Positions 11,377-39,789 of a DNA stretch of 64,000 nucleotides are shown one piece after another. The notes under the pieces were generated by a model, which was given only the letters and a program-made list of their open reading frames with translations, made no database searches and was not told the origin of the DNA. How positions within the stretch are numbered: the stretch's first letter is position 1; each line of letters starts with the position of its first letter. Where the stretch lies: NCBI GenBank assembly GCA_052387815.1, contig JBQTIU010000022.1, forward strand, positions 15,428 to 79,427. The letters are read 5' to 3'. The DNA comes from Pseudomonadota bacterium (GTDB lineage Bacteria; Pseudomonadota; Alphaproteobacteria; CACIAM-22H2). A program made the translations under genes and the position numbers.

Positions 11377-12144
11377 ATGAGCGATAGCCTGTTCTCGCTC
11401 GCGGGCCGCACGGCGCTGGTCACCGGCGCCTCGCGCGGCCTCGGCCTGGCGATCGCACGGGCGCTCGGGGCCCACGGCGCGCGCGTTGTTTTGAATGCCC
11501 GCGATGCCAAGCTCCTCGAGGCCCGCGCCACCGTGCTGCGGGACAAAGGGATCGCGGCCGAGGTCGCGCCCTTCGACGTCACCGACGAGGCGGCAGCCAC
11601 GGCCGCGCTCGCCCGCATCGCCCGCCAGCACGGGCGCCTCGACATCCTGGTCTCCAATGCTGGGATCAACATCCGCAAGGCCGCGCTCGAATATCCGACC
11701 GCGGATTTCCAGGCGGTGATCGCCACCAATCTCACCGCCTGCTTCATCCTCGGCCGCGAGGCCGGCAGGCTCATGGCGGCGCAAAATTACGGCCGCATCA
11801 TCATGGTGAGCTCGATCATCGCGCGCCTGGCCCGGCCCACAATCTCGGCCTACGCGGCCGCCAAGGCCGGGCTCGACTCGCTAACCCGCGCGCTCGCCGT
11901 CGAGCTGGGGCCGAAGGGGGTGACGGTCAACGCCATCGCACCGGGCTTTTTCGCCACCGACCTCAACGCCCCGCTCATGGCCAACCCGGACTTCGACGCC
12001 TTCGTGCGCAAGCGCACGCCGATCGGGCGCTGGGGCCAGCCCGACGAGCTCGGCGGCGCGGCCGTCTTCCTCGCCTCCGATGCGGCGGCTTACGTCAACG
12101 GCCACACGCTGGTGGTCGACGGCGGCGTCACCGTGGCGCTGTAG
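11377..12144 (+). CDS. Short-chain dehydrogenase/reductase (gluconate-5-dehydrogenase-like SDR)
   Basis: LAGRTALVTGASRGLGLAIA, SNAGI, YAAAKAG, 255 aa. Start is 10 nt after the dehydratase stop. Confidence 0.85.
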   Translation: MSDSLFSLAGRTALVTGASRGLGLAIARALGAHGARVVLNARDAKLLEARATVLRDKGIAAEVAPFDVTDEAAATAALARIARQHGRLDILVSNAGINIRKAALEYPTADFQAVIATNLTACFILGREAGRLMAAQNYGRIIMVSSIIARLARPTISAYAAAKAGLDSLTRALAVELGPKGVTVNAIAPGFFATDLNAPLMANPDFDAFVRKRTPIGRWGQPDELGGAAVFLASDAAAYVNGHTLVVDGGVTVAL

Positions 12145-12235
12145 AGCCCTCGGGGGCGAGATCGTCCTCGATGAAGGCGTTGATGATCGCGTCGATCGAG
12201 GCGTCCGCCTCGAACCCCATAGCGCGCGCGCCGCT
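12059..12235. repeat. Left copy of a ~180 bp direct duplication: SDR 3' end plus orphan epimerase C-terminal fragment
   Basis: 12059..12235 matches 13600..13778 with only a few mismatches, including an identical 76-nt block after the TAG stop. The minus-strand reading of the left copy gives ...ARAMGFEADASIDAIINAFIEDDLAPEGSTAPR*, the last ~33 aa of the epimerase encoded at 13670..14668. Confidence 0.7.
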
Positions 12236-12320
12236 GCGCTCGCGATGGGGCTTCGCGCCGCGCGCGGGTCCTCCGTGTGGACGACCGGGACGACCTCGCA
12301 CCTCATCCCCGGGCGCAAAA

Positions 12321-12366
12321 AAGTGTTACCAATGTGCCCGGTCTAAAGTGTTACCCATGTCCCCGG
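12321..12366 (+). promoter_or_regulatory. Two 21-bp tandem direct repeats upstream of the DUF433-MNT-HEPN operon (candidate operator/promoter)
   Basis: AAGTGTTACCAATGTGCCCGG (12321..12341) and AAGTGTTACCCATGTCCCCGG (12346..12366), 25-bp period, in a locally AT-richer patch 40 bp upstream of ATG 12405. Confidence 0.45.
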
Positions 12367-12404
12367 CTGTACAAGGAGCTGACCCGGAGCGGGGGAGAGA
12401 AGGC

Positions 12405-12611
12405 ATGGCCCGCAAGCGTATCGAGATCAACCCCCAGATCATGTTCGGCAAGCCGGTCATCCGAGGCACGCGGATCACCGTCGAGCACATCCTGCGCAAG
12501 CTGTCCGCCGGGAGGACGCCGGAAGAGATTCTGCGCAACCGTCCGCAACTGAGCGTCGACGACATCCGTGCCGCCGAGGCCTTCGCTGCCGATCTGGGGA
12601 GGACGCCATGA
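12405..12611 (+). CDS. DUF433-family small protein (antitoxin-like)
   Basis: MARKRIEINPQIMFGKPVIRGTRITVEHILRKLSAGRTPEEILRNRPQLSVDDIRAA fits the DUF433 pattern (GKPvIrGTRI). GGAG upstream; stop overlaps the next start (ATGA). Confidence 0.75.
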   Translation: MARKRIEINPQIMFGKPVIRGTRITVEHILRKLSAGRTPEEILRNRPQLSVDDIRAAEAFAADLGRTP

Positions 12612-12928
12612 TCAGCGCCGCAGTTCCGGAAGCCCTATTGAACTCGGTGATCGCCTATTTCAATCCGCGCCGGGTGATCCTGTTCGGCTCCGCTGCGCGC
12701 GGCGCGGCGGGACCCGACAGCGACTATGACCTGGTGGTCGTACTCGACGACGACGTGCCGCCGGAGCGATTGAGCTGGCGGGCGAGCTACGAGGCGCGGC
12801 GCGACTGGCACCGTGCGGTGGACATCCTCCAGTGTCGGGAAACGACCTTCCGCGAGCGATCCCGCATCGTCGGCTCGCTCGCCCACAGCGTCGCTACCGA
12901 GGGCGTCATCGTCTATGAGCGCACCTGA
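12608..12928 (+). CDS. Minimal nucleotidyltransferase (MNT) partner of a HEPN/MNT module
   Basis: ILFGSAARGAAGPDSDYDLVVVL (GS...DxD nucleotidyltransferase motif), 106 aa. Confidence 0.8.
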   Translation: MISAAVPEALLNSVIAYFNPRRVILFGSAARGAAGPDSDYDLVVVLDDDVPPERLSWRASYEARRDWHRAVDILQCRETTFRERSRIVGSLAHSVATEGVIVYERT

Positions 12929-13337
12929 GGATTCGCGCTGGCTGGAGGCGCGCCGCTGGTTCGCGGTCGCGAACGAGGATCTGCGCGTCGCCCGCGCCTG
13001 CCTGACGATGGACGAGCCGGCCCTCGGCGCGGCGGCGTATCACTGCCAGCAGGCGGTGGAGAAGCTTATGAAGGGGCTTCTCGTCGCGGGCGCGCGACCG
13101 TTCCGCAAGATCCACGATCTCGACGAACTTGCCGAGGCGGCAACGGCGGTATTTCCGGGCCTTCGTCCGCATCTCGACGCCTGCCGTCCGTTCACCCGCT
13201 GGGGAACCGCGCTCCGCTATCCGGAGATCGGCGACGAGGCGCTCGTCGGGCCGACGGCGGCGGACATCGCCTCGGCCCTGCCTCGGATCGAAGCCCTCGC
13301 CGCCGCCGTCGCCGAACTCGGTTCCGGACGACGGTAG
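12915..13337 (+). CDS. HEPN-domain protein (HepT-like toxin partner)
   Basis: AAYHCQQAVEKLMKGLLVAG helix typical of HEPN, then the ALRYP segment; 140 aa. Start ATG 12915 overlaps the MNT 3' end by 14 nt; the listed ORF 12813..13337 contains it. Confidence 0.75.
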   Translation: MSAPEDSRWLEARRWFAVANEDLRVARACLTMDEPALGAAAYHCQQAVEKLMKGLLVAGARPFRKIHDLDELAEAATAVFPGLRPHLDACRPFTRWGTALRYPEIGDEALVGPTAADIASALPRIEALAAAVAELGSGRR

Positions 13338-13517
13338 CCGCGGAGAATCAATCGCATGGCCATCGTCAACAAGGATCGCATCAGCCGCGGGCCGGAGCTG
13401 CTGCGCCAAGGGCTGACGCCCTTGATCGAACGGCAGCTCGAGGCGCGACTCGGCGCCAACGGGGTGAAGCGCGCCCTCGAGCTCATCCTCGAGACCGCGG
13501 CGGGCTCGAACACCCAA

Positions 13518-13686
13518 GGGCGGCGCCGGCCTCGAGGAGCTTGGCGCCGCGGGCGTTCAAGACCACGCGCGCGCCGCCGAGCTGCGGGGCAAAGGGATCG
13601 CGGCGGTGTTCCTCGCCTCCGACGCGGCGGCTTACGTCAACGGCCACACGCTGGTGGTCGACGGTGGCGTCACCGTGGCGCTGTAG
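13518..13686 (+). pseudogene. Scrambled remnant of a second copy of the 11377..12144 SDR gene
   Basis: 13521..13577 is the reverse complement of SDR nt ~11472..11535. 13578..13603 matches SDR nt ~11536..11562 in direct orientation. 13604..13686 matches the SDR 3' end 12062..12144 including the TAG stop. No intact reading frame. Confidence 0.6.
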
Positions 13687-13778
13687 AGCCCTCGGGGGCG
13701 AGATCGTCCTCGATGAAGGCGTTGATGATCGCGTCGATCGAGGCGTCCGCCTCGAACCCCATCGCGCGCGCGCGCCGC
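13600..13778. repeat. Right copy of the ~180 bp direct duplication (SDR remnant 3' end plus intact epimerase 3' end)
   Basis: See left copy 12059..12235. Identity breaks at ~12235/13778. Confidence 0.7.
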
Positions 13779-14668
13779 GAATCGAGCCGGCCCGGCCAGC
13801 CGTCGACGATGTTCTGGATGCGCGGATCGATTTCCCACTGGATGCGCCCGTAGGCGGCCGCGCCGGCGACCCGCCGCAGGCCCTCGGCCATCTCGGCCAC
13901 CGACAGATCGAGCGAGGGCAGCATCAGCGTCCGCCAGCTGCCCCAGGCCGCTTGCGGCAGGTCGTGGGCGCGGATGAATGCCGCAATTGTCCGGCGCGGG
14001 CTCAACAGCGGCATCATCGAAGTGGGCTTGACCGGACAGACGGCGGTCTTGCCCATCAGCGGCTCGCGGATGATCGAGGAAGCGAAGGTCGAGGCGGCGG
14101 GGTTGGGCTTGCCCGGGCGGACCACGATGGTCGGCAGGCGCAAGCACCGCCCGTCGATGAAGCCCTTGCGGGAATAGTCGGCGATCAGCAGTTCGCCCAT
14201 CGCCTTATGGGCGCCGTAGGAGGTCTGGGGGGTGAGCTTGTGGCCGTCGGCGATGACCTCGGGCAGCTCGCCCCCGAACACCGCGACCGAGGAGGCGAAC
14301 ACCAACCGCGGCGGCGAGCCCAGCGCGCGGCAGGCCTCGAGGACGGCGCGCGTGCCGTCGAGATTGACGCGGTAGCCGAGATCGAAATCGGCCTCGGCGC
14401 CGGCGCTCACCACCGCCGCGAAGTGGAACACGGCCCCGGTGTCGGCCGAGATCACGCGTTTCATCAATTGGGCGTCGTCGATCTCGCCGGCGACGAAGGT
14501 GAGCCGGCGGTCGGCCGGCAGGTCGCTCGCCGCGACGTTGTCGAACAGGACCAGGCGAGCGATGGCTCGCGGCTTCCCGTCCGGCCCGGCGAGGCCGCCC
14601 CGCTTCAAGAGCTCGCGCGCCAGCTTCTTGCCCAGCATCCCGGCGCCACCGGTGATCACGACCTGCAT
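13670..14668 (-). CDS. NAD-dependent epimerase/dehydratase-family oxidoreductase (DenD-like sugar-acid dehydrogenase family)
   Basis: MQVVITGGAGMLGKKLAREL (Rossmann GxxGxxG), YGAHKAMGE (YxxxK), 332 aa. Confidence 0.85.
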   Translation of the reverse strand: MQVVITGGAGMLGKKLARELLKRGGLAGPDGKPRAIARLVLFDNVAASDLPADRRLTFVAGEIDDAQLMKRVISADTGAVFHFAAVVSAGAEADFDLGYRVNLDGTRAVLEACRALGSPPRLVFASSVAVFGGELPEVIADGHKLTPQTSYGAHKAMGELLIADYSRKGFIDGRCLRLPTIVVRPGKPNPAASTFASSIIREPLMGKTAVCPVKPTSMMPLLSPRRTIAAFIRAHDLPQAAWGSWRTLMLPSLDLSVAEMAEGLRRVAGAAAYGRIQWEIDPRIQNIVDGWPGRLDSRRARAMGFEADASIDAIINAFIEDDLAPEGSTAPR

Positions 14669-14687
14669 CGGCTGGGCCCCCGGCCGC

Positions 14688-20333: not shown

Positions 20334-22075
<1,742 letters not shown>

Positions 22076-24145: not shown

Positions 24146-24146
24146 G

Positions 24147-29122: not shown

Positions 29123-29234
29123 AGCCGCAGCGTCCGAATTGTCGCTCATCGTCGCCGGATCGTAACCCCTTGGCATCAAAATCCGGCCATCCTAATTGTC
29201 GCCGACCGGACATCACAATTGTCGTTGTACAGCG

Positions 29235-29805: not shown

Positions 29806-29826
29806 AACCGAAAAACGCTCCAGGCG

Positions 29827-30447: not shown

Positions 30448-30840
30448 AGAGCGGATGACCTCCGCCTCGCGCACCCGCTCGTAGCGTGCATCCAAGATCA
30501 GATACGGATCGGGCTCGACCAGCCGCCGGCTGGCAAACGCCGCCAGGCCCGCGTCCAGGGTCTTGTTGATGGCGCTGATCGCGGAGGCTGAGAACTGGTG
30601 CCCGCAGAGTTCTTCCGTAATCGCCTTGATCTTGCGGCTCGACACGCCCTGGACGTACATCTCCGCCAACCTCCCGACCAGTGCCTTCTCCGAGCGCCGG
30701 TAGCGAGCGAACAGCGCGGTCGAAAATCGCCCTTCGCGATCCTGCGGCACCCGCAGCTCGAGCTTGCCCACCCGCGTGATCAGAGTCCGGCCGTAATAGC
30801 CGGCCCAGTCGCCAAGACGTCCCGCCGTTCGCCCGCCGGA
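30448..30840 (-). mobile_element. IS256-family transposase internal fragment (residues ~80-210 equivalent)
   Basis: Minus-strand ...DWAGYYGRTLITRVGKLELRVPQDREGRFSTALFARYRRSEKALVGRLAEMYVQGVSSRKIKAITEELCGHQFSASAISAINKTLDAGLAAFASRRLVEPDPYLILDARYERVREAEVIRS is near-consensus IS256 family. Both termini are missing: stop codon upstream, and divergence after VIRS. Confidence 0.75.
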
Positions 30841-30934
30841 TCAGGCAGAAATGGACCACGACGATGACCAGCACGATGGGCAGCAGCTGGGTGAGCCGCA
30901 GCACGACGTAGGCGCTCATCGAGCCGGGCTTCAT
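30841..30934 (-). pseudogene. N-terminal stub of an ABC (Dpp/Opp-type) permease truncated by the IS256 fragment
   Basis: MSAYVVLRLTQLLPIVLVIVVVHFCL resembles DppB/OppB N-termini (MLRYILRRLLQLIPTL...); there is no downstream body. Confidence 0.35.
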
Positions 30935-31100
30935 GAGCGCATCAATCGGCGGCTCGCCGGTTCACCGGCGCTCCCCGCCGGGCCGGGGCGGCGCCATCGC
31001 GGGCCTCCTTGCATCGTCGCGACCCGGGTTCACGCGGGGCAACCGCGGCTCGAAGATACGGCGACGGTACCGACTCCCGCCCGCCGAGTTCAAGCGACGG

Positions 31101-31868
31101 TCAAAGCAGGGCCTTGCGCAGGCCGCCGTCGATCTGCAGGGTCGTTCCAGTGACGTACGAACCCTTCGGCGAGGCGAGGAGCGCGGTCATCGCCGCGATG
31201 TCCTCGGGCCGGCCGATCCGCCCGACCGGAATATCGGCCGCGAGGTCCTTCATCGCCTTGCCCGACTGCTCGCTCACCTTGTGGAGCCGCGGGGTCTCGA
31301 TCAAGCCCGGGCAGATGGTGTTGATGGTGATGCCGAGCGGCCCCAATTCCAGGGATAGCGTCTTGGCGAGGCCGATGACGCCGGCCCAGGTCGCGACCGA
31401 CAGGCCGAAGCCGACGATCGGCTGCACCGCCGACAAGGCCGTGATGTTGACGATGCTGCCCCGGCCGCGCCGGCGCATGTGCGGCACCACCGCCCGGATC
31501 ATACGCAGCACGCTCAATAGGTTCTGCTCCACCGCCTTGCCCCAGGCGACGTCGTCGAAGGCGAGGCTGTCGCCGAGCGGCGGCGCCCCGTCGTTGTTGA
31601 CCAGGATGTCGACCCCGCCGAGCCGACGCACCGCCTCCTCGACGATGCGCGCGCAGTCCTCGGCCCGGCGGATGTCGCCCTGGACGGCGGCCACCCGGGC
31701 TCCGGTCTCGCGCGCCACTCGATCGGCCGCCTTGCCCAGCGCCGGCTCGCGGCGGGCGGTCATGCAGACCGCCGCACCCTCCGCGGCCAGGGTCCGCGCG
31801 ATGGCGAGGCCGATCCCTTGGCTCGCGCCGTTGACGATCGCGATCTTGCCGCCGAGTTCGAGGTCCAT
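31101..31868 (-). CDS. Short-chain dehydrogenase/reductase (SDR)
   Basis: GKIAIVNGASQGIGLAIA, NNDG, catalytic region, 255 aa. Confidence 0.85.
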   Translation of the reverse strand: MDLELGGKIAIVNGASQGIGLAIARTLAAEGAAVCMTARREPALGKAADRVARETGARVAAVQGDIRRAEDCARIVEEAVRRLGGVDILVNNDGAPPLGDSLAFDDVAWGKAVEQNLLSVLRMIRAVVPHMRRRGRGSIVNITALSAVQPIVGFGLSVATWAGVIGLAKTLSLELGPLGITINTICPGLIETPRLHKVSEQSGKAMKDLAADIPVGRIGRPEDIAAMTALLASPKGSYVTGTTLQIDGGLRKALL

Positions 31869-31870
31869 GG

Positions 31871-32728
31871 CTACCCCTTCAATGTGGCGAGGAACCGCTC
31901 CGCGTTCGAGCGGAACACCTTCTCCAGCACCGCGTCGGCGAAGCCGAGGCCCTGCCAGTCCCGCACCAGCCGCTCGTAGGTGAACAGCGGATAGTCGGCC
32001 CCGAACATCACGCGGTCCTGCAACCGGCGCGCGATCTCGTGCTTGAGGTCGTCGCTCAGGTAGCGCGGCGACCAGCCGTGGAGCTCGTACCAGACGTTCG
32101 GCTTGTGCAGCATCACCGCGATCATCTCGGTCTGCCAGGGCCAGGCCGGTCGCGCGGCGACGATCGTGAGCTTGGGATGACGCGCCGCCACGGCGTCGAG
32201 ATGGCGCGGGTGGCAGCTGTCGAGGGTGATCCCCGCGCCCCCCGGCAGGCCGGCGCCGAGGCCGGTGGTGCCGACGAAGATCAGCGCCGGCATCTTGGCC
32301 TCGATGCAGGTCTTGTAGAACGGGTCCCAGGCGGGATCGCTCGCCGGCACGCCGCCCGACCCCGACACGGCGAGGCCGACGAAGCCCGAGCCCGCCGCGA
32401 GGCAGCGCTTGAACTCGTCGAGCGCCGGCGTGCCGAGCTCCGGCTGGAAATGCACCCAGTTGCCGATGATCACGTCGGCATGGGCGCGCTGGGTGGCGAA
32501 GCCGTAGTCGTGGAGGTCGCGCGCCTGATCGACCGGCAGGAACTTCGTGAACCCGAAATCCAGGATCACGCGCAGCTCGGCCCGCCGGAAGTCCTCCGCC
32601 ATTTCTGCTTCGGTCGCGTATTGCGGTCGCGAGCGCCAGGTATGCTCCTGTCGTGCCAGCTCGTCCTCGGTCCTGAGCGGATAGCCCCGTTTCGTCTTCC
32701 AGTGCGAGTGCATGTCGATCAGCGGCAT
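31871..32728 (-). CDS. Amidohydrolase-2 (PF04909) family metal-dependent hydrolase/decarboxylase
   Basis: MPLIDMHSHW..., TIM-barrel amidohydrolase-2 signature residues, 285 aa. Confidence 0.75.
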   Translation of the reverse strand: MPLIDMHSHWKTKRGYPLRTEDELARQEHTWRSRPQYATEAEMAEDFRRAELRVILDFGFTKFLPVDQARDLHDYGFATQRAHADVIIGNWVHFQPELGTPALDEFKRCLAAGSGFVGLAVSGSGGVPASDPAWDPFYKTCIEAKMPALIFVGTTGLGAGLPGGAGITLDSCHPRHLDAVAARHPKLTIVAARPAWPWQTEMIAVMLHKPNVWYELHGWSPRYLSDDLKHEIARRLQDRVMFGADYPLFTYERLVRDWQGLGFADAVLEKVFRSNAERFLATLKG

Positions 32729-32757
32729 GAGGCGTTCCTTTCTCCGGTGGCGGCGTC

Positions 32758-33465
32758 TCAGGAGAGCCCGAGATAGGTCCGACGGATGTCCGCGCTCTCG
32801 CGCAGTTCGGCGCCGGTGCCTGCGACGACCACGCGCCCGGTCTCGAGCACGTAGACGCGGTTGGCGATCGCCAGCACCTGGTGCGCGTTCTGCTCGGCGA
32901 CGACGATGGTGACGCCCTCTTCGTTCAGCCGGCGGATGACGTGGAAAATGTCGCGCACGATCCGCGGCGCGAGCCCGAGGGACGGCTCGTCGAGAACGAG
33001 GAGGCGCGGCACGCTCATCAGCGCCCGGCCGATCGCCAGCATCTGCTGCTCGCCGCCGGAGAGCAGGCCGGCCGGCTGCCGGCGCCGCGCGGCGAGGATT
33101 GGAAAATAGGACTCGACCCGCTCGAGCGTGCGGCGGAATTCGCGGCGCGCGGCCGGCAGATAGGCTCCGACCTCCAGGTTCTCGGCCACGGTGAGGTCCG
33201 GGAACAGCAGGCGGCCTTGCGGAACCTGGACCATCCCGGCGGCTACGATCTGCTCGGGCGCCAGGCCCCGGATCGGTCGTCCCTCGAGCATGATCCGCCC
33301 GGCATGGACCGTGGTCAGGCCGGACAGGGTGCGCGCCAGCGTCGTCTTTCCGGCGCCGTTGGTTCCCAGGATGCCGACGATCGCGCCGCGCTCGACCGAC
33401 AGCGCGACGTCGCGCAGGACGTCAATACGCCCGTAGCCGGCAGAAAGGCCCGCGATCTCAAGCAT
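32758..33465 (-). CDS. livF: Branched-chain-amino-acid-type ABC transporter ATP-binding protein (LivF-like)
   Basis: GTNGAGKTTL, LSGGEQQMLAIGRAL, 235 aa. Confidence 0.85.
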   Translation of the reverse strand: MLEIAGLSAGYGRIDVLRDVALSVERGAIVGILGTNGAGKTTLARTLSGLTTVHAGRIMLEGRPIRGLAPEQIVAAGMVQVPQGRLLFPDLTVAENLEVGAYLPAARREFRRTLERVESYFPILAARRRQPAGLLSGGEQQMLAIGRALMSVPRLLVLDEPSLGLAPRIVRDIFHVIRRLNEEGVTIVVAEQNAHQVLAIANRVYVLETGRVVVAGTGAELRESADIRRTYLGLS

Positions 33466-34231
33466 GGGGCTCGCTCTCGCCGAGATAGGCCTCGATCACG
33501 CGCGGGTCCGCCTGGACCTCGACCGGCGTCCCTTCGGCGATTTTCTCCCCGTGGTCGAGGACCGTGATGCGGTCGGCGAGCGCCATGATGACGCGCATGT
33601 TGTGTTCGACCACGACCAGGGTGATGCCGTGCTCGCCGGCGAGCGCGCGGCAGGTGCTCACCAGGTCCTGCGCCTCTTGGGCGGCCATGCCGGACGCCGG
33701 CTCGTCGAGCATCAGCAGGCGCGGGTCGCCGAACAGGGCGCGGACCAGGTCGACCTTCTTCAGCACGCTGAAGGGCAGGTCGCCGGCGAGCGCGTCGCGG
33801 TAGGGCGTAAGACCGAACCGTTCGATCAGCGCCTCCGCCCCGCCGATCGCCGCGCGCTCCGTCCTCGCCATCGCCGGCGTGCCGATCAGGTTGTGCCAGA
33901 AGCCCGCATTGTGCCGTTCGTAGCTGGCGGTGAGCACGTTGGTCAGCACGGTCTGGTCGGGGAAGACCTCGGCGTGCTGGAAGGTGCGGCCGATGCCGAG
34001 CGCGGCGATGCGGTGGCCCGGAAGCGTCTGCATCTCGCGCCCGTCGAACCGGATCCGCCCGGCGCTCAGCGCGACGAGGCCCGAGGCCGCGTTGATCAAC
34101 GACGTCTTGCCGGCGCCGTTCGGACCGATCAGGCCGTGGATCTCGCCCTGCTCGATGGCGAACGAGACGTCCGACAGGGCAGCGAGACCGCCGAAGGTCA
34201 CCGACAGCCGCTCGACGGCGAAGTAGCTCAC
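33458..34231 (-). CDS. livG: Branched-chain-amino-acid-type ABC transporter ATP-binding protein (LivG-like)
   Basis: GPNGAGKTSL, C-terminal LivG extension. Proposed GTG start (complement 34231..34229) preceded by GGAGGG and overlapping the LivM stop (GTGA). Confidence 0.8.
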   Translation of the reverse strand: MSYFAVERLSVTFGGLAALSDVSFAIEQGEIHGLIGPNGAGKTSLINAASGLVALSAGRIRFDGREMQTLPGHRIAALGIGRTFQHAEVFPDQTVLTNVLTASYERHNAGFWHNLIGTPAMARTERAAIGGAEALIERFGLTPYRDALAGDLPFSVLKKVDLVRALFGDPRLLMLDEPASGMAAQEAQDLVSTCRALAGEHGITLVVVEHNMRVIMALADRITVLDHGEKIAEGTPVEVQADPRVIEAYLGESEPHA

Positions 34232-35205
34232 CGCGGCCCTCCGCTCGCCGCGCCGGCCGTGCCGCGCGCCAGGAGGCGCTTGAGCGCCGGCCACAGCCCG
34301 ATGAGCCCGCTCGGCATGACCATGAGCACCAGCAGCAGGAGGCCGCCGTAGACCAGCTCGTTGTATTCCTTGAACCCGCGCAGCAGCTCGGGCAGCACGG
34401 TGAGGACCGCGGCGCCGATCACCGATCCGGCGACCGAGCCGAGGCCGCCGACGACGATGAAGGTCACGTGCCGGATCGAGGTCCAGACGCCGAATTCCAG
34501 CGGATCGATGAAGCGCACCAGCGTCGCGAACATGGCGCCGGCGACGCCAGCATAGACCGCAGCCACCACGAAGGCGATCAACTTCACCCGGGTGACCGGG
34601 ATGGCCAGGGTCTCAGCCGTCGCTTCGCTCACCCGGATGCTGTTGAACGCTCGGCCGATCGGCGAGTTGAGCAGCCGCCAGGCGGCGTAGAGCGCCATGA
34701 AGGCGACCGCGAGAATCACGTAGTAGAGCGACAGGTCGCTGGCCAGGCGGACCCCGAATAGCGACGGGCGGGGCACCGCGAGGCCGCGCACGCCCCCGGT
34801 CACCGACGGCAGCGACTCGATGATGATCTGCATGATCTCGAGAAAGCCGAGGGTGACGACGGCGAGGTAGAAGCCCCTCAGGCGCAGCGCCGGCAGGCCG
34901 AGCACGACCCCGAACAGGCCGGAAACGGCGCCGGCCAGCGGCAGAGCCAGCCAGAAGGTGAGGCCGAGCTGGGTGAGGAGGAACGCGCTCGTATAGGCGC
35001 CGATCGCCATGAAGGACGAGTGGCAGAGCGAGATCTGGCCGGCGTTGCCGGTGAGCAGATTGAGGCCGATGGCCAGGACGACGTTGATCAGCGCCAGCGA
35101 CAGCAGGTAGTGGTGGTAGGAGCCGAGGAACCACGGGCCGACCAGGAGCAGCGCCACGAGCCCGGCCAGGCCCGCCCGTCGCAGCGAAGCTTCGTCGGGC
35201 CGCAT
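34228..35205 (-). CDS. livM: Liv-type ABC transporter permease (LivM-like)
   Basis: Polytopic membrane protein, 325 aa, LivM-like order in the operon. Confidence 0.85.
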   Translation of the reverse strand: MRPDEASLRRAGLAGLVALLLVGPWFLGSYHHYLLSLALINVVLAIGLNLLTGNAGQISLCHSSFMAIGAYTSAFLLTQLGLTFWLALPLAGAVSGLFGVVLGLPALRLRGFYLAVVTLGFLEIMQIIIESLPSVTGGVRGLAVPRPSLFGVRLASDLSLYYVILAVAFMALYAAWRLLNSPIGRAFNSIRVSEATAETLAIPVTRVKLIAFVVAAVYAGVAGAMFATLVRFIDPLEFGVWTSIRHVTFIVVGGLGSVAGSVIGAAVLTVLPELLRGFKEYNELVYGGLLLLVLMVMPSGLIGLWPALKRLLARGTAGAASGGPR

Positions 35206-35212
35206 GCCTGGC

Positions 35213-36091
35213 TCAGACCCGGCGCGCTTCGGCCTGGCCGAACAGGCCGTGCGGCCGCACCAGCAGGATGAGAAGCAGCAGGACGAAGGCGACCGTCTCC
35301 TTGAACAGGCCGCCGAAATAGGCGCCGCCGAAGACCTCGAGCACGCCGAGCAGCATGCCGCCGATGACCGCGCCGACCAGGCTGTGGAATCCGCCCAGGA
35401 TCGCCGCCACGAAGGCCTTGAGGATGACGCCGCCCATCTCGGCGTGGATACCGATGAGGGGCGCGACGAGAATCCCGGCGACGGCCGCGATCATCGTGCT
35501 GATGGCGAAGGTGATGGCAAACATCCGGTTGACCCTGATCCCCATGAGCTGAGCCGCCACCGGGTTCTGCGCCACGGCGCGCATCGCCTTGCCGACCAGG
35601 CTGCTGCGGAAGAACGCGGCCAGCGCGGCCATCAGCACCAGGGAGCAGCCGATCACCCACAGGTACTGCGGATTGATCCGCAGGCTGCCGACGGCGAGGG
35701 GCGCATCCCCGAACGGTGTGGCGATGGTCGACACTTGCTCCTGCCACGACAGACGCAGGACGTTCTTGATCATCAGCCCGACCGCCAGGGTCGCGATGAC
35801 GACGGTGAAGGCCGGCGCGCGGGCGAGCGGCCGGATCAGGCCGCGCTCGAGGGCGATCCCCACCCCGCCGGTGATCAGCAGCGTCAGGACGAACACCCAG
35901 GGGTAGGACAACTTGGCCAAGGTGCTGAGGAACAGCGCGATGTACGCGCCGAGCGTGACCAGCTCGCCCTGGGCGAAGTTGACCACCGAGGTACCCTTGA
36001 ACGCGAGCACCAGGCCCAGCGCGACGAGGGCGTAGATGCTGCCGGTGCTGAGGCCGGCAATCGCCAGCTGCAAGGCGACCTCAAGAGTCAT
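35213..36091 (-). CDS. livH: Liv-type ABC transporter permease (LivH-like)
   Basis: MTLEVALQLAIAGLSTGSIYALVALGLVLAFKGTSVVNFAQGE... canonical LivH N-terminus; start ATG complement 36091..36089 inside listed ORF 35213..36214. Confidence 0.85.
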   Translation of the reverse strand: MTLEVALQLAIAGLSTGSIYALVALGLVLAFKGTSVVNFAQGELVTLGAYIALFLSTLAKLSYPWVFVLTLLITGGVGIALERGLIRPLARAPAFTVVIATLAVGLMIKNVLRLSWQEQVSTIATPFGDAPLAVGSLRINPQYLWVIGCSLVLMAALAAFFRSSLVGKAMRAVAQNPVAAQLMGIRVNRMFAITFAISTMIAAVAGILVAPLIGIHAEMGGVILKAFVAAILGGFHSLVGAVIGGMLLGVLEVFGGAYFGGLFKETVAFVLLLLILLVRPHGLFGQAEARRV

Positions 36092-36170
36092 GACGAGGCC
36101 CCGGCCGGCGCGGGGCGGCGAGAGGCCCGGCGGCGGGCCGACCGGCCGCCGGACCCGCCGCCCAGTGCGT

Positions 36171-37391
36171 CTATTTCTTGTACTCGGCGAGGATCTCGCT
36201 GTCGCGCGCCGCATCCCACCGCACCGGGACCCAGTGCTGGTTGATCACCACCATCATCTGCATTCGCAGGTTGCCGATGTGATGCCAGTCGGTGAACGTG
36301 CGCGGCGTTGCGATCTCGCTCACCTTGTAGTCCTTGATCGTCTCCAGCGCCTTGACCAGGCCGTCGCGGGTGAGCCCCCGGCCCGCCCGGCGCAGTCCCT
36401 CGGCGACCACATGCATGTCGGAGTAGGAGAGGATGTCGAACAGGTTCGGCCGGCCCTTGATCTCGGTCGGATTGAGCTTCGACCAGGCCTCCTTGAACTT
36501 GAGCATGTCGGGATGCACCGAGTCGAGGAAGACGCCGGTCAACCATCCGCCCATGAACCCCTCGGCGGAATAGCCGGCGGCGGCGATCAAGGAGTTGTCG
36601 ACCATCGCGCCGCTGCCGAAGATTGGTTGGCGCAGCCCCAGCTCCCGCGCCTGGCGGAGGATGATCGACGCCTCGGTGACGTGCCCGAGGGTCATGATCA
36701 CCTCGGGGTTCGCTTCCTTGATCTTCAACAGCTGCGGCGTGAAATCCTTGTCGCCGACCTTGAACTCGGCGCGCAGCACGGGCTTCATGTTGTACCACTT
36801 GGCGAGCAGCCGCTCGGTCGCGTCGCCCTCGTTCTTCGGGAACTCGTCGCTGCCGCTCAGGATGGCGATCTTCTTCGCCTGCAGGAACTGGGTGATGAAC
36901 TCGGCGTAGAGCTCGCCGTAGCGCGCCGCCTCGGTCGTGCCGCCGCGGAAGAAATACTTGTTGAACGGCCGCGTCACCGGGGGCGCTGAGGCGAAGGAAA
37001 CGTAGTTCGGCACCTTGAGGTCGCGCAGATATTCGAGCGTGCCGACCGTCGGGTTGCTGCCCGAGACGCCGAAGATCATGAATGCCTTGTCCTGCTCGAC
37101 CAGCTTCTTGACCGCCGCCAGCGCCCTGGCCGGCGAGAAGCCGTCGTCCTCGAACTCCACCCTGATCTTCCGGCCATGGATGCCGCCCGCGTCGTTGATC
37201 TCCTTGACCGCGACCGCCAGGCCGTCGCGCCCGCCGAGGCCGATATAGGCGGCCGGCCCGGTGAGCGGGCCGTAGGCGCCCAAGACGATGGTGTCGCTGG
37301 TTACGCCGTCTTGCGCGCTCGCCGGCGATCCGGCGAGGGCAACCGCCGCGGCGAAGGCGGCGGCGATGATTCGATCGGTACTCTTGCGCAT
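36171..37391 (-). CDS. Liv-type (family 4/6) periplasmic substrate-binding protein
   Basis: Signal peptide MRKSTDRIIAAAFAAAVALAGSPASA, LivK/ligand-binding-receptor fold motifs, 406 aa. Confidence 0.85.
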   Translation of the reverse strand: MRKSTDRIIAAAFAAAVALAGSPASAQDGVTSDTIVLGAYGPLTGPAAYIGLGGRDGLAVAVKEINDAGGIHGRKIRVEFEDDGFSPARALAAVKKLVEQDKAFMIFGVSGSNPTVGTLEYLRDLKVPNYVSFASAPPVTRPFNKYFFRGGTTEAARYGELYAEFITQFLQAKKIAILSGSDEFPKNEGDATERLLAKWYNMKPVLRAEFKVGDKDFTPQLLKIKEANPEVIMTLGHVTEASIILRQARELGLRQPIFGSGAMVDNSLIAAAGYSAEGFMGGWLTGVFLDSVHPDMLKFKEAWSKLNPTEIKGRPNLFDILSYSDMHVVAEGLRRAGRGLTRDGLVKALETIKDYKVSEIATPRTFTDWHHIGNLRMQMMVVINQHWVPVRWDAARDSEILAEYKK

Positions 37392-37469
37392 GGGGTTCCT
37401 CCTCTCTCCTTGGGTCCTCGTTCGATGCGCCGCGGTCCGGAGCGGCGCCGACTTCGCTGTCCTCCCCGC

Positions 37470-39122
37470 CTAGCGGGCGTGCTTGCGGTCGGCCGCGCGG
37501 CGGCCGATGACGATGTCCCTGAGCGGTCCCTTCTGGATCTTGCCGGTCGGGGTCCGCGGCAGCTCGCTCATCAGCTCCAGGAATTCGGGCAGCTTGTAGG
37601 TCGCGATGCGCGGCCGCAGGAAGTCGTTGATCTCGTCGAAGGTGATCGTCTGCCCGGCCTTGGGCACGATGCAGGCGCAGGTGCGCTCGCCCAGCCGCGG
37701 ATCGGGCAGCCCGACCACGGCGGCGTCCATCACCTTGGGGTGCTGGTAGAGCACCTCCTCGATCTCCCGCGGATAGATATTGGCTCCGCCGCGGATGATC
37801 ATCTCCTTCTTGCGCCCCGCGATCCGTAGATAGCCCTTTTCGTCGAACACGCCGAGATCGCCGGTGCGGAACCAGCCGTCCTTGGTGAAGCTGCGCCGGT
37901 TGACGTCGGGATTGTTGTAATAGCCGATGGTGACTGAGGGTCCGTAGGTCAGGATTTCGCCGACCGTCCCCGGCGGGCACTCGACGCCGTTGTCGTCGAC
38001 CACCTTGTTCCGCATCGCGGGCAGCGAGCGTCCGACCAGCCCGCACACGGATTCCGGGTGCTCCGAGAGCCGCGTATGCGCCTGCGAGCCGCATTCGAGC
38101 ATGCCGTACATCTCCAGGAGATGGCCGGGGATCCGGGCACGAATCTCGCGGATCACCTCGATCGGACAGGACGCCCCGCCGGTCATCATCACCTGGAGCG
38201 AACGGAGATCGTACTTGCCGAAGTCGGGCGCGTGGAGCAGCGACACCAGGTGCGCCGGCGCACAGCAGAAATGCGTCACCTTCTCCTTCTGGATCAGCTC
38301 CAGCGCCCGCTCGGCCCTGAAGATGTCGAGGAGCACTACGGTGCACCCGGCGAAGATCGCCTGCAGCACGTTGAACAGGCCCCAGTTCAGGCCGACCGGC
38401 AGGAAGATCAGGAACACGCTGTTCGACGTGATCGCCTGGCCTTCGTTGAGGAAGCGGCCCGCGCAATTCGTGGTGTTGTGCAGGTGGAGCACGGCTTTGG
38501 GGTCGCCCGTCGTGCCCGAGGTGAAGGCGGCCCGCACCAGGTCGTTGCCGTGCGGCCGGCGGCGGCGCAGCTCCGCCTCCGGCACCGCGAGCGGTGCGTC
38601 GTGGTCGAGGAAGCCCCTCAGATCGAAGGCGTCCTCCGGCACGGCGTCGCCAACGAACATCACGTGCTTCAGCGCCGGCAGGCGCGGCCGCAGCTCGCGG
38701 ATCATCGCCGGGTAGTCGAACCGGCGGAACCCGCTCGGCGCGATCACCGCTGAGGCGCGCGTGAAGCCGAGGATGAACTCGACCTCGCGGGCGCGGAAAT
38801 CGCTGTGGTACTGGCAGAACGGCACCCCGGCCATCATCGCCGCGTTGATCGCAACCACGAACTCGCTCCAGTTCGGCAGCTGGATCGCGATCACGTCGTC
38901 GGCGGTCAGGCCGAGCTTGACGAAATGCGCCGCCAGACGCTGGGCGCGGCGGTGAAGCTCGGCATAGGTCAACCGGCAGCGGCCGTCGATCACCGCGATC
39001 TTGTCCGGGGTGCTCGCCGCGACGCGATCGAGTTCCTCGTTGCTGGTCGTCTGGACCCAGTACCCGGCGCGCTCGAACTCGCGCATGCGCTCGGGCGGGA
39101 TCTGGGGGTCGTCTATCCGCAC
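37470..39122 (-). CDS. AMP-dependent synthetase/ligase (acyl-/aryl-CoA ligase)
   Basis: TSGTTGDPKAV AMP-binding motif, YGMLECG, GWFRTGDLG, PRTPTGKIQK; 550 aa. Confidence 0.85.
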   Translation of the reverse strand: MRIDDPQIPPERMREFERAGYWVQTTSNEELDRVAASTPDKIAVIDGRCRLTYAELHRRAQRLAAHFVKLGLTADDVIAIQLPNWSEFVVAINAAMMAGVPFCQYHSDFRAREVEFILGFTRASAVIAPSGFRRFDYPAMIRELRPRLPALKHVMFVGDAVPEDAFDLRGFLDHDAPLAVPEAELRRRRPHGNDLVRAAFTSGTTGDPKAVLHLHNTTNCAGRFLNEGQAITSNSVFLIFLPVGLNWGLFNVLQAIFAGCTVVLLDIFRAERALELIQKEKVTHFCCAPAHLVSLLHAPDFGKYDLRSLQVMMTGGASCPIEVIREIRARIPGHLLEMYGMLECGSQAHTRLSEHPESVCGLVGRSLPAMRNKVVDDNGVECPPGTVGEILTYGPSVTIGYYNNPDVNRRSFTKDGWFRTGDLGVFDEKGYLRIAGRKKEMIIRGGANIYPREIEEVLYQHPKVMDAAVVGLPDPRLGERTCACIVPKAGQTITFDEINDFLRPRIATYKLPEFLELMSELPRTPTGKIQKGPLRDIVIGRRAADRKHAR

Positions 39123-39336
39123 TCGGTGTTCCCTCCCGCCGCGATCAGGTAGACCGCGCCGCGGCCGCGAACCCTCGCCTGGCGTCTGATCGGTCAGTTA
39201 GCATTCGCCGGTCTTTCCCGTCAAGGACGGGCGGTCGGCCGCTCCGCCCCGTGCGATCCGCACCCGCGTCGGTCCCGGCGCGCGAGCGATCGGACGGTCG
39301 CGGATCCCGGCGGCGCCGGGGGATGACCGTCGCCGC

Positions 39337-39600
39337 TCAGCGCACCACCAGATCGAGTGGCCGGGCCGAAAGCAGCGCGTTGCCGGATTCGGTCACCACC
39401 ACCGACGCGCCGGGATACATCGCGATGCCGGCGCTCGAATCCATCAGGATCATGTGCAGGAAGAAGACCATGTTGGGCGCGGCCACGATCGGGTTGCCGG
39501 CGTAGAGCGTCGGCCAGTCCATCCAGTTGGGCGCGAAGGTCGTGCCGAGCGAATAACCGCACGCATTCAGCCGATACTCGCGCATTCCCGCGCCGGCCGC
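39337..39600 (-). pseudogene. C-terminal fragment of an M24-family (creatinase/prolidase-type) peptidase
   Basis: Minus-strand ...MREYRLNACGYSLGTTFAPNWMDWPTLYAGNPIVAAPNMVFFLHMILMDSSAGIAMYPGASVVVTESGNALLSARPLDLVVR* resembles the M24 C-terminus (GMVFTIEPG...G.RIED.V.VTE.G.E.L). Upstream it runs straight into the antisense of the thioesterase fragment, so the N-terminal ~300 aa are absent. Confidence 0.55.
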
Positions 39601-39604
39601 GACG

Positions 39605-39789
39605 CGCGCCAAGGTCCGCGGCGGCGCCAAGAAAAAATGTACATCGCCTCGGCCGAGGTGCACGACACGGCGGGCACGCTGCTGGCGGTAGGCGAGGTCG
39701 TCTACCGCTACCGGGCGGGCAGCGAGACGACCAAAGGCGTGCCGCTCGGGGAAGAAAGCGGCGAAAAGCGCAACACTTCCTTGGGCTAG
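39605..39789 (+). pseudogene. Right copy of the thioesterase 3' end (gene fragment; direct repeat of 28941..29122)
   Basis: ...KMYIASAEVHDTAGTLLAVGEVVYRYRAGSETTKGVPLGEESGEKRNTSLG*; an extra A (AAAAAA vs AAAAA) shifts the frame relative to the intact copy; no 5' part. Confidence 0.75.

Follow-up and report, generated by a model that had tools for sequence, protein, structure and literature searches.

Two insertions bounded by long direct repeats of gene 3' ends within one 64-kb bacterial window, and their possible origin by homology-anchored integration

Introduction

Two insertions lie within 30 kb of each other on an NCBI MAG contig of 191,887 bp, each enclosed between two copies of a gene 3' end, which raises the question of how DNA could enter a gene junction, leave a gene end in duplicate and yet keep the gene itself intact. 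A sequence-only reading of the 64-kb stretch analysed here (termed the window) had described both insertions with direct repeats of ~180 bp and had put forward two candidates, namely insertion by recombination with gene ends restored, and gene-end-targeting integration. The features of both sites are collected in Table 1.

Table 1. Features of the two insertion sites (window positions; L050 is a distant relative, L059 a locus carrying the operon of insert 2)
Feature	Position	Strand	Basis or remark
Altronate/galactarate dehydratase family gene	9481..11367	+	Pfam GD_AH_C, GD_AH_second, SAF; directly upstream of SDR
Intact SDR gene	11377..12144	+	Pfam adh_short_C2, E 2e-65; last 88 nt within D1 copy A
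D1 copy A	12057..12231		SDR 3' end (12057-12144) and non-functional epimerase 3' fragment (12128-12231, minus strand)
Insert 1	12232..13598		1,367 nt between D1 copies
Two direct ~22-nt copies AAGTGTTACCAATGTGCCCGG / AAGTGTTACCCATGTCCCCGG	12321..12367	+	Starts 25 nt apart; upstream of DUF433 gene
DUF433 gene, 68 aa	12405..12611	+	Pfam DUF433, E 8e-23; stop overlaps start of next gene
Nucleotidyltransferase gene, MNT-type antitoxin-like	12608..12928	+	Pfam NTP_transf_2, Polbeta; PADLOC PDC-S09
HEPN-domain gene, toxin-like MNT partner	12915..13337	+	Pfam HEPN, E 5e-12
Truncated gene, 5' start only	13356..13500 (end approximate)	+	ORF list
Possible second dehydratase 3' remnant	13469..13522	+	80% to 11256-11308; E 5e-7, restricted search
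Inverted SDR 5'-region remnant	13519..13576	-	88% to 11475-11532, E 3e-13
Direct SDR 5'-region remnant	13567..13604	+	89% to 11521-11558
D1 copy B	13599..13773		Non-functional SDR 3' fragment and functional epimerase 3' end
Intact NAD-dependent epimerase / D-erythronate dehydrogenase gene	13670..14668	-	Pfam Epimerase; NCBI name of 100% identical MGQ0662875.1
Thiamine-pyrophosphate (TPP) enzyme gene	26787..28496	-	Pfam; conserved left neighbour of thioesterase, order as in L050
Intact PaaI/4HBT thioesterase gene	28628..29122	+	Pfam 4HBT; C-terminal tail conserved across family
D2 copy A	28926..29121		Thioesterase 3' end up to stop codon
Insert 2	29122..39589		10,468 nt between D2 copies; insertion per uninterrupted L050 gene order
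Three direct AATTGTCG motifs in 88 nt	29137..29224	+	Immediately 3' of thioesterase stop
IS630-family transposase, C-terminal half	29236..29830	+	Pfam DDE_3; blastn to annotated IS630 transposases; translation
IS3-type (rve) transposase fragment	29824..29960	-	Pfam rve E 7e-5, below gathering cut-off; translation
IS256-family (Transposase_mut) fragment	30400..30771	-	Pfam E 2e-36, profile positions 74-181 of 379; ISRm5-like matches
Eight-gene operon	31101..39122	-	Acyl-CoA ligase, liv-type ABC transporter (5 genes), amidohydrolase_2, SDR
Xaa-Pro (M24) peptidase C-terminal fragment	39340..39579	-	tblastn to annotated Xaa-Pro peptidases, E 3e-17 to 3e-18
D2 copy B	39590..39788		Displaced thioesterase 3' fragment
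Enoyl-CoA hydratase (ECH) gene	39816..40607	-	Pfam ECH_1; convergent thioesterase neighbour in uninterrupted L050 order
Class-V aminotransferase gene	40613..42166	-	Pfam; belongs to conserved L050 order

Repeat pairs D1 and D2

Self-BLAST identified D1 as a gapless pair of 175 nt (170/175 identical, 97%; E 2e-79), while D2 was found to span 199 aligned columns at 93.5% identity with 3 gap positions, its core (28967-29121 / 39634-39788) being 155 nt long at 96% identity. The longest perfect runs were 97 nt for D1 and 56 nt for D2. Both insertions were thus confirmed to be flanked by direct repeats of about the length first described, far exceeding the target-site duplications of transposases. 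D1 and D2 were the sole dispersed repeats above 88% within the window, and no pair like them was found by self-BLAST in 51 control loci (755 kb); two such pairs per 64 kb against this background corresponds to a Poisson p of ~0.001-0.003.

At both sites, as originally noted, one flank holds an intact gene and the opposite flank a fragment. Their topology is also shared, consisting of a convergent junction with the intact plus-strand gene to the left and the fragment to the right, beside the downstream gene, and at both sites the identity of the right-hand copy drops toward its left edge. The similar length of the two repeats (~180 bp) is probably a coincidence.

Site 1: the SDR/epimerase junction

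D1 covers the final 88 nt of the SDR gene (+) together with the final 104 nt of the convergent epimerase gene (-), the 3' ends of which overlap by 17 nt. The SDR gene is completed by copy A and the epimerase gene by copy B, leaving both intact. The initial picture had placed the repeat ends near a stop codon, which applies to D2, where identity stops at the second base of TAA/TAG (5 nt further if a 2-nt gap is allowed), but not to D1, which holds two stop codons in its mid-region and does not itself end at one. All mismatches between the D1 copies (5/5) were synonymous, at the third codon position in the frame of the gene concerned.

Additional SDR remnants were identified to the left of D1 copy B, the direct one joining this copy with a ~480-nt gap relative to the intact SDR. 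They share 88-89% identity with the resident SDR and ~55-65% with that of any relative, suggesting that they originate from a closely related allele. Mismatches amounted to 11/96 in these remnants versus 5/175 in D1 (Fisher p = 0.006; three-way chi-square p = 0.01). As SDR pieces, and perhaps a dehydratase piece, occur in gene order left of copy B, a longer second homologous copy probably once existed, of which D1 copy B is the best-preserved part, the remainder being scrambled. The putative dehydratase remnant gave no match in whole-window BLAST at 1e-5.

Insert 1 carries a DUF433-MNT-HEPN toxin-antitoxin cassette, and the AAGTGTTACCAATGTGCCCGG / AAGTGTTACCCATGTCCCCGG repeats preceding it may be operator-like. 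The truncated gene behind the cassette shows a weak resemblance to HEPN_Swt1 (Pfam E 0.06, below threshold). No transposase or integrase gene was found by Pfam scan of the ORFs of this insert. A third toxin-antitoxin cassette is present at 3192-3889, also at a convergent junction, and no flanking duplication was found for it.

Site 2: the thioesterase/enoyl-CoA hydratase junction

The mismatches between the D2 copies comprise 2 synonymous and 4 non-synonymous changes in addition to indels. Within its left 44 nt, copy B loses the reading frame through a +1 and a +2 indel, the latter situated in a run of A.

The left end of insert 2 is a cluster of truncated transposase fragments of the IS630, IS3 and IS256 types. 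The IS630-family gene is 5'-truncated with one in-frame stop in its translation, and the IS256-family fragment is truncated on each side. Five AATTGTCG motifs were counted in the window against 1.0 expected; the region of the three beside the thioesterase weakly matched repeated elements located close to IS21-like and IS66 genes, and the motifs are possibly the remnant of an IS end. At the opposite end, the Xaa-Pro peptidase fragment is truncated at its junction with D2 copy B.

In the intervening operon, Pfam matches identified the genes for the SDR, amidohydrolase_2, binding protein and CoA ligase, and the other four ABC genes were named from their L059 counterparts. The same eight genes were found as a unit in L059 (76% aa) and on a JGI contig (84% aa), in other genomic contexts, indicating that this cargo moves between genomes.

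Relatives and searches for mobility functions

In L050, the order TPP(-) / thioesterase(+) / ECH(-) / aminotransferase(-) is uninterrupted, with a thioesterase-ECH spacing of 13 nt. In seven relatives the epimerase and SDR genes are convergent with 0.8-5.5 kb of differing cargo in between, and no gene-end remnants were found in those relatives with other cargo at this junction. These comparisons bear out the view that both structures are true insertions at gene ends, the empty site being defined by gene order in one distant relative (L050) rather than at nucleotide level. For this MAG, no donor, empty-site strain or conspecific genome was found in the collections searched, where the closest homologues reached 78% aa for the epimerase and 61% aa for the thioesterase; the D1 and D2 copies are thus not polarisable.

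The reported lack of an integrase or nearby tRNA was upheld. No integrase domain was found in the window ORFs scanned against Pfam, the L059 counterparts of four further operon ORFs (32758-36214) are ABC-transporter proteins, and no tyrosine or serine recombinase was found in the scanned ORFs or in a six-frame reading of 29100-31100. No tRNA gene was detected in the 64-kb window, no terminal inverted repeats at insert 1 or insert 2, and no sequence motif common to the ends of the two inserts.

Comparison with known systems

Insertion with long target duplication was reportedly a subject of Nobusato et al. (2000, Gene 259:99). The pattern of D1 and D2 matches this class, which is known from the literature and mechanistically unsolved (Furuta, Abe & Kobayashi 2010, NAR, PMC2853133). 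Published members have inserts <20 kb, direct repeats of 46-423 bp with ~92-100% identity and no mobility genes, and the repeats often span a stop or start codon while the target gene is left intact (PMC2853133). Both inserts are likewise <20 kb with repeats of 175 and 199 bp (97% and 93.5%) that span or end at a stop codon, the target gene remains intact, and no integrase gene was found in either, nor a transposase gene at site 1. Addiction-type modules are frequent cargo in this class and one is present at site 1. However, the published cases are restriction-modification systems with nucleotide-level empty sites in conspecifics, whereas the cargo here is a DUF433-MNT-HEPN module and a catabolic/transport operon and the empty site is a gene order in a distant relative. 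Site 2 also differs in holding transposase fragments, all truncated, and site 1 in its extra, more diverged remnants, which suggest that the second copy used to be much longer.

Single-crossover integration and homology-facilitated illegitimate recombination (HFIR) are reportedly treated by de Vries & Wackernagel (2002) and Prudhomme et al. (2002). When homology was confined to one side in E. coli conjugation experiments, 56/60 analysed recombinants duplicated the homologous locus around the insert, the duplications measuring 109-950 bp in 14 sequenced clones and arising by single crossover of a circular molecule, with true HFIR being rarer (Amarir-Bouhram et al. 2011, PMC3240628). The resemblance lies in one-sided homology of ~100-1000 bp driving the integration of otherwise foreign DNA, with no element-encoded enzyme required; those cases, though, are laboratory events with known donors, and no donor was found here in the collections searched.

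Displaced ('orphan') 3' gene remnants of successive module replacement have been described at Rhs/CDI/T6SS loci, with HFIR invoked as the mechanism (Kirchberger et al. 2017, PMC5361080). There too, the resident copy gives way to an incoming allele with cargo, and a 3' remnant is left on the downstream side of the insert, but the sites described here are ordinary metabolic genes and the remnant has no evident function. The elements e14 and phage 21 integrate into the 3' end of icd in E. coli and bring a replacement end; elements of this type possess a tyrosine integrase of their own, and their crossover core is defined. They share with the present sites an intact gene at one end, a 3' fragment of ~165-200 bp displaced to the opposite end and copies that are similar rather than identical, as well as, at site 2, homology ending at the stop codon; unlike them, no recombinase was found here in the scanned ORFs.

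Origin of the insertions

The reading favoured here, tentatively and with somewhat less than even confidence, is that both structures were left by the general (RecA-type) recombination machinery of the host, through homology-anchored integration of related-lineage DNA, and not by a gene-end-targeting enzyme encoded on an element. The incoming DNA would have borne the cargo (the toxin-antitoxin cassette at site 1, the IS-rich catabolic/transport operon at site 2) as well as homology to the local gene end, and may have entered either by a Campbell-type single crossover of a circular molecule or by HFIR, with one homologous and one illegitimate joint. Either route would leave the homologous gene end present twice, one copy from each partner. 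The only survivors would be products with both convergent flanking genes intact, which would account for the position of the repeats over gene 3' ends. Deletion, inversion and indels would then have eroded the redundant copy, starting at its 5' side and sparing the part that adjoins the downstream convergent gene. The repeats, the insertions and the remnants of a second copy are observed directly; from this anatomy we infer by which route recombination took place, that one copy is foreign and which side carried the homology.

Exclusively synonymous mismatches, as in D1, are what one expects of two alleles diverging as functional genes, and are unlikely to result from neutral decay of an in-situ duplicate (p roughly 0.02-0.1, by our estimate). 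The end of D2 at the stop codon also fits, as homology between alleles in different contexts naturally stops at the gene end. Counted for homology-anchored integration as well were the location in convergent pairs, the SDR remnants, the identity heterogeneity, the lack of integrase, tRNA, terminal inverted repeats and shared end motif in the searches above, the E. coli precedent and the mobility of the operon of insert 2. Counted against it were the negative search for a donor, empty-site strain or conspecific genome in the collections examined, the illegitimate joints that each version of the model leaves unexplained, one or more at either site (12231/12232; about 39580-39590), and the need for the site 1 donor to have had an epimerase or SDR fragment beside its cargo. 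The D2 mismatches and indels, judged by their type, look more like pseudogene decay than allelic difference, and gene conversion after an old in-situ duplication could be the source of the identity gradient.

Such an origin in situ, as long target duplication in the strict sense with both copies resident-derived and initially identical, is considered unlikely. Two offset breaks (staggered nicks 175-200 nt or more apart, or differing positions on sister chromosomes) would have been filled in or joined with foreign DNA caught between, followed by decay and gene conversion. The anatomy agrees with the published class (PMC2853133), the D2 mismatches (4/6 non-synonymous, plus indels) fit decay of a duplicate, and conversion could hold a contiguous 175 nt at 97% while isolated 38-58-nt pieces drifted to 88-89%. 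However, the five synonymous D1 mismatches and the significant identity heterogeneity across site 1 speak against it, the homology end at the thioesterase stop is unexplained except via selection, and the published driver, cargo-encoded DNA cleavage, cannot apply to a HEPN/MNT module and a catabolic operon, no DNase gene having been detected in the cargo of either insert. Less probable still are remnants of integrase-mediated islands that carried a replacement end into protein-gene 3' ends and have since lost their recombinase, by IS-mediated decay at site 2 and by deletion to 1.4 kb at site 1. The order of intact gene, island, displaced 3' fragment and original downstream DNA is as such islands would leave it, D2 ends at the stop codon, the IS cluster occupies the expected integrase position beside the restored gene end, the three AATTGTCG repeats after the stop could be arm-type binding sites, and truncated genes at the inner edges indicate that both inserts lost material. 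Nevertheless, the recombinase searches of the ORFs and of 29100-31100 were negative, element homology at site 1 would span most of an SDR gene (att sites are not usually of this kind), the AATTGTCG region is instead weakly similar to repeats associated with IS elements, and no integrase-bearing related island was found, the cargo relatives occurring in other contexts without an integrase.

It is very unlikely that two unrelated local histories produced look-alikes with no common mechanism, site 1 by partial tandem duplication of the dehydratase-SDR-epimerase end with a cassette later received or retained, and site 2 by IS-mediated rearrangement. A scrambled second gene copy at one site contrasts with IS debris and a peptidase fragment at the other, synonymous mismatches number 5/5 in D1 versus 2/6 in D2, and neither the third cassette nor the relatives show a duplication; against this stand two pairs in 64 kb versus none in 755 kb of controls, the same topology and the same fall in identity toward the left edge of the right copy. 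The earlier preference for recurrence over coincidence is accordingly supported by the frequency of the pairs in 30 kb and weakened by their differing anatomy and the third cassette. Least probable of all, and scarcely to be expected, is an assembly artefact in which two co-existing strain variants of the MAG (ends 3-7% diverged) were stitched serially. The source is a MAG contig, the copies diverge at strain level and the +2 indel of D2 copy B lies in an A run, a typical site of consensus error, but a mis-join requires shared k-mers at 12231/12232 and 29121/29122, where only a few bases are common, every flanking gene is intact and in frame, and the cargo ORFs are intact. Common final k-mers of short-read assemblers exceed 97 nt; the perfect runs (97/56 nt) are shorter, making the copies resolvable.

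Of the two candidates proposed at the outset, the better supported is thus insertion by recombination with gene ends left intact. Dedicated gene-end-targeting integration is disfavoured by the lack of a shared end motif and of terminal inverted repeats at the inserts and by the differing site anatomies, and is further weakened by the third cassette and by SDR/epimerase cargo of relatives, which come without duplication or gene-end remnants. The repeats themselves, with perfect runs of 97 and 56 nt, could allow RecA to bring about precise loss, amplification or circle formation, and both insertions may therefore be reversible in principle.

Direct repeats at two sites

Comparison of the window with itself using BLAST identified exactly two dispersed high-identity repeats, D1 and D2, both direct and with E-values of ~1e-79. 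The left and right copies at each site are termed A and B. The DNA enclosed amounts to 1,367 nt for D1 (insert 1) and 10,468 nt for D2 (insert 2), with D2 possessing a core of 155 nt that is 96% identical. At both sites the 3' end of the target gene forms the repeats, each insert having an intact gene on one side and a displaced fragment on the opposite side. A sequence-only reading of this region had proposed two insertions flanked by gene-end duplications, each with an intact gene on one flank and a fragment on the other, and this was found to be essentially right (repeats of 175 nt and 199 nt, together with the gene order of locus L050 from a distant relative). Its description of the repeats as stopping at the stop codon holds for copy A of D2, which extends up to the thioesterase stop codon, but not for D1, which spans both convergent gene ends.

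The same self-BLAST applied to 51 control loci (755 kb, mostly from other Alphaproteobacteria) returned no comparable repeat, so that two repeats in 64 kb represent an enrichment (Poisson p ~0.001-0.003), in agreement with the earlier suggestion that two cases in 30 kb exceed chance. The longest perfect runs are 97 nt in D1 and 56 nt in D2, which suffice for RecA-dependent recombination, and precise loss or amplification is therefore possible.

Features at the two repeat sites and at a VapBC-like gene pair (window coordinates)
Feature	Position	Strand or orientation	Remarks
PIN-like ORF	3192-3599	-	PIN call by eye
AbrB/MazE-type antitoxin	3596-3889	-	
SDR gene	11377-12144	+	convergent with epimerase gene; Pfam
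D1 (copy A = copy B)	12057-12231 = 13599-13773	direct	175 nt, 170 identical, 0 gaps
Insert 1	12232-13598		
Operator-like repeats	12321-12367	direct	two, ~22 nt, 25 nt apart start to start
DUF433 gene	12405-12611		first gene of insert 1 module
MNT-type nucleotidyltransferase gene	12608-12928		second gene of insert 1 module
HEPN protein gene	12915-13337		third gene of insert 1 module
Possible dehydratase 3' piece	13469-13522		80%; upstream of SDR pieces; restricted search
Second-SDR-copy piece	13519-13576	inverted	88%
Second-SDR-copy piece	13567-13604	direct	89%
Epimerase / D-erythronate dehydrogenase gene	13670-14668	-	convergent with SDR gene; Pfam
Thioesterase gene	28628-29122	+	intact
D2 (copy A = copy B)	28926-29121 = 39590-39788	direct	199 aligned columns, 93.5%, 3 gap positions; copy B a frame-broken thioesterase 3' fragment
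Insert 2	29122-39589		
AATTGTCG, three motifs	29137-29224	direct	within 88 nt, directly after thioesterase stop; 5 in whole window against 1.0 expected
IS debris	29236-30850		truncated IS of at least 3 families, none intact
Enoyl-CoA hydratase gene	39816-40607		convergent; 26 nt past D2 copy B

The SDR/epimerase junction and insert 1

Once insert 1 and one copy of D1 are removed, the 3' ends of the SDR and epimerase genes overlap by 17 nt. D1 corresponds to this overlap region and covers 88 nt at the 3' end of the SDR gene together with 104 nt at that of the epimerase gene. In copy A the SDR gene is completed and the epimerase end is dead; in copy B the epimerase gene is completed and the SDR end is dead. 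The C-terminus of the epimerase (…DDLAPEGSTAPR) was observed to be longer than those of relatives (…DDLRPAAG and similar), and its last codons lie antisense to the SDR 3' end across the overlap (12128-12144 / 13670-13686). Because of this lengthening by antisense codons, the abutting genes look like the product of an earlier deletion of intervening DNA.

Epimerase and SDR genes were also found to be convergent in all seven relatives compared (71-78% aa), separated by 0.8-5.5 kb of unrelated cargo that included a metallo-beta-lactamase-fold protein, a chemoreceptor, an AraC/MFS pair and another SDR. Such varied cargo indicates that the junction is a variable spot, as judged from gene order, and none of the seven carried gene-end remnants there.

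Insert 1 carries a module of three genes with overlapping stops and starts (at 12608-12611 and 12915-12928). At ~40 nt upstream of where the DUF433 gene begins lie two direct repeats, AAGTGTTACCAATGTGCCCGG and AAGTGTTACCCATGTCCCCGG, which resemble operators through which the DUF433-MNT-HEPN module would regulate itself. The usual partner of DUF433 is the PIN-like DUF5615, and for this reason its presence in one operon with an MNT/HEPN pair is an unusual arrangement. Relatives of the HEPN protein in a metagenome scan reached at most 49% identity, with no informative context. A truncated gene start downstream of the HEPN gene (13356-13500) weakly resembles that of a Swt1-like HEPN gene, a candidate that was set aside as the Pfam match was below threshold (E 0.06).

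Downstream of this truncated gene start, the two pieces of a second SDR copy stand in gene order, with the direct piece joining copy B of D1 and ~480 nt missing relative to the intact gene. Both pieces are far nearer to the window's own SDR gene than to the SDR of any relative. Because they run in gene order into copy B, the 175-nt D1 appears to be what survives best of a second copy that was formerly longer. The match to a dehydratase 3' end (46 nt, 13469-13514) was missing from the whole-window BLAST at 1e-5, but obtained an E-value of 5e-7 in a restricted search, and was for that reason kept as a possible remnant of a second dehydratase 3' end. A hairpin at the left junction of site 1 was also considered and rejected, its fold being no better than that of shuffled sequence (z = -0.67).

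The thioesterase junction and insert 2

At locus L050, genes for a TPP enzyme (-), thioesterase (+), enoyl-CoA hydratase (-) and class-V aminotransferase (-) share the order and orientation of the window flanks, with a gap of only 13 nt between the thioesterase and the hydratase. This uninterrupted order indicates that site 2 is a true insertion, L050 (proteins 56% aa identical) being an empty site at the level of gene order and not of nucleotides.

The first 114 nt of insert 2 hold the three AATTGTCG motifs, a stretch that may be an IS end or a set of protein-binding sites; positions 29183-29234 gave a weak match to multi-copy DNA beside IS21-like/IS66 genes on plasmids of Azospirillum and Paraburkholderia. 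The IS debris that follows, with a GC content (0.64-0.67) below that of its surroundings, comprises the C-terminal half of an IS630, interrupted by an in-frame stop, a fragment of an IS3-type rve and a piece from the interior of an IS256. An IS4/IS1634-like reading of positions ~30080-30260 was considered and is not claimed. The intact eight-gene operon of insert 2, on the minus strand, encodes a CoA ligase, a five-gene liv-type ABC transporter, an amidohydrolase_2 and an SDR. The whole set was also found together in other genomes, where its surroundings differ (76-84% aa identity). A C-terminal fragment of a Xaa-Pro peptidase ends the insert ~10 nt from copy B of D2.

Mobility functions

No tRNA or tmRNA gene that could provide an attachment site was identified in the window with ARAGORN. 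Pfam scans of ORFs across the window detected no domain of a tyrosine or serine recombinase or integrase; for four ORFs of the ABC operon (32758-36214) that lay outside these scans, the counterparts at L059, a locus with the same operon in another context, are ABC-transporter proteins. A six-frame reading of 29100-31100 gave no recombinase in the region of IS debris. Neither integrase nor transposase was found in insert 1; insert 2 likewise gave no integrase, yet truncated IS630, IS3 and IS256 transposase fragments are present at its left end. There was no inverted match of at least 9 nt between the ends of either insert, nor any end motif common to both.

Hallmarks of DDE transposons and IS elements are target-site duplications of ~2-14 bp with terminal inverted repeats; the inserts have repeats of 175 and 199 nt and no terminal inverted repeats. 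The sequence-only reading was thus correct in regarding the repeats as longer than transposase target-site duplications and in noting no integrase or tRNA nearby. Its candidate of a dedicated gene-end-targeting system found no support, as the inserts share no end motif and neither has terminal inverted repeats.

Relatives and other features of the window

Proteins of the window are present in NCBI (MGQ0662875.1, MGQ0662888.1). After the MAG's own proteins (100%), the nearest were at 78% for the epimerase (also 78% aa for the best match in a scan of genome contigs), 61% for the thioesterase and 85% for the CoA ligase. Look-ups of identical proteins gave no match for the SDR or for one further protein (P0001). 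No conspecific genome was present in the collections searched, and no close relatives of the inserts were found on plasmids, where matches were distant (65-77% nt).

A VapBC-like pair (3192-3889, minus strand) brings the accessory cassettes at convergent junctions to three; it lies between genes for a dienelactone hydrolase (2304-3167, +) and an ABC permease (3961-4773, -). Local GC is lower here (0.647), and no flanking direct repeat longer than ~18 nt was found. Tandem paralogous genes for family-5 solute-binding proteins (55211-56987 and 57036-58756) are 69% identical overall. Close to their 5' ends, however, identity reaches 91% over 104 nt (55370-55473 vs 57154-57257), which suggests a local gene-conversion tract. 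ABC transporters and genes of sugar-acid and acyl-CoA catabolism dominate the content of the window, and its nearest DNA matches are megaplasmids of Azospirillum, Sinorhizobium and Rhizobium (65-77% identity). The contig may be part of a chromid-like secondary replicon, a type of replicon that is recombination-prone.

Origin of the inserts

All five mismatches of D1 are synonymous and at third codon positions (four within the SDR reading frame and one within that of the epimerase). Identity at site 1 is lowest for the isolated remnants (~80-89%), higher where D1 covers the SDR gene (95.5%) and highest where it covers the epimerase gene (98.9%), a significant heterogeneity (p = 0.006-0.01). Because the mismatches are all synonymous and identity is heterogeneous, the pattern would fit two alleles that diverged while functional, one copy arriving with foreign DNA. 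D2 shows two synonymous and four non-synonymous mismatches, with indels of +1 and +2 among its leftmost 44 nt, a mixed signal that appears neutral or against a two-parent origin of its copies.

Recombination-mediated insertion, also a candidate of the sequence-only reading, is considered the most likely explanation, at a little under an even chance. DNA of a related lineage would have entered both sites through host recombination, anchored by homology, either in a Campbell single crossover or by homology-facilitated illegitimate recombination. Only products in which neither convergent neighbour was damaged would have survived, with later decay of the redundant gene-end copy. Long target duplication in situ is unlikely: under uniform neutral decay such a duplicate would fit the synonymous changes and heterogeneity of D1 less well, though gene conversion homogenising only the contiguous 175 nt is possible and could account for the pattern at site 1.

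An island at a gene 3' end that has since lost its integrase would explain why the repeats are the 3' end of the target gene, accompanied by an intact gene and a displaced fragment. The elements e14 and phage 21 at icd, which bring a replacement gene end, have the same outer layout, but require an integrase. With no recombinase in the ORFs scanned and no tRNA or tmRNA gene in the window as an attachment site, such an island is quite unlikely here. That two unrelated local histories coincide is very unlikely, and an assembly artefact highly improbable.

Relation to known systems and biological meaning

The anatomy of the two sites matches the pattern known as insertion with long target duplication, where repeats of 46-423 bp with ~92-100% identity, inserts below 20 kb and no mobility genes have been published (PMC2853133); both inserts here are below 20 kb with flanking direct repeats above the 30 bp used as size criterion for this class. 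In many of the published cases the duplication extends across a stop or start codon and leaves the target gene intact (PMC2853133). They have been described for restriction-modification systems, with the mechanism unsolved (PMC2853133; see also PMC3457768), and one proposal links them to a DNA-cleaving activity of their own cargo. Whereas the published cargo is mainly restriction-modification, the window has a HEPN/MNT module and a CoA-ligase/ABC-transporter operon, and no DNase was detected in either. Since the same anatomy surrounds cargo without a detectable DNase, a host recombination route is pointed to rather than a cargo-encoded one. Long target duplication is an already known pattern, and the useful addition is this cargo with no detectable DNase.

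In the laboratory, conjugation with one-sided homology in E. coli has been documented to give the same product. Of the 60 recombinants analysed, 56 had the insert flanked by a duplicated homologous locus (109-950 bp in 14 sequenced clones), arising from single crossover of a circular molecule, with true homology-facilitated illegitimate recombination being rarer (PMC3240628). Module replacement at T6SS/Rhs loci leaves displaced 3' remnants (PMC5361080), and transformation can create duplications by bridging sister chromatids (PMC3784515).

A further proposal, which we hold to be decidedly doubtful, is that cassettes with gene-end repeats move independently of recombinases, by RecA loop-out circles and single-crossover re-entry. 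If true, a cassette bracketed by ~100-200 bp of conserved gene-end sequence would leave as a circle through host RecA and re-enter any genome with the same gene end by a single crossover, the flanking genes always being restored. Small addiction or defence cassettes and operons would in that case land preferentially where two genes converge, and the lineage would be unusually active, with two cases and, as a third, a toxin-antitoxin cassette, all at convergent junctions in a stretch of 40 kb.

The practical value of these observations is limited by their source, one MAG contig (191,887 bp) for which the collections searched contain no close relative. For the host, an uncultivated alphaproteobacterium-like lineage, they mean that regions dense in genes can take in accessory DNA with both neighbours spared, even where convergent gene ends overlap.
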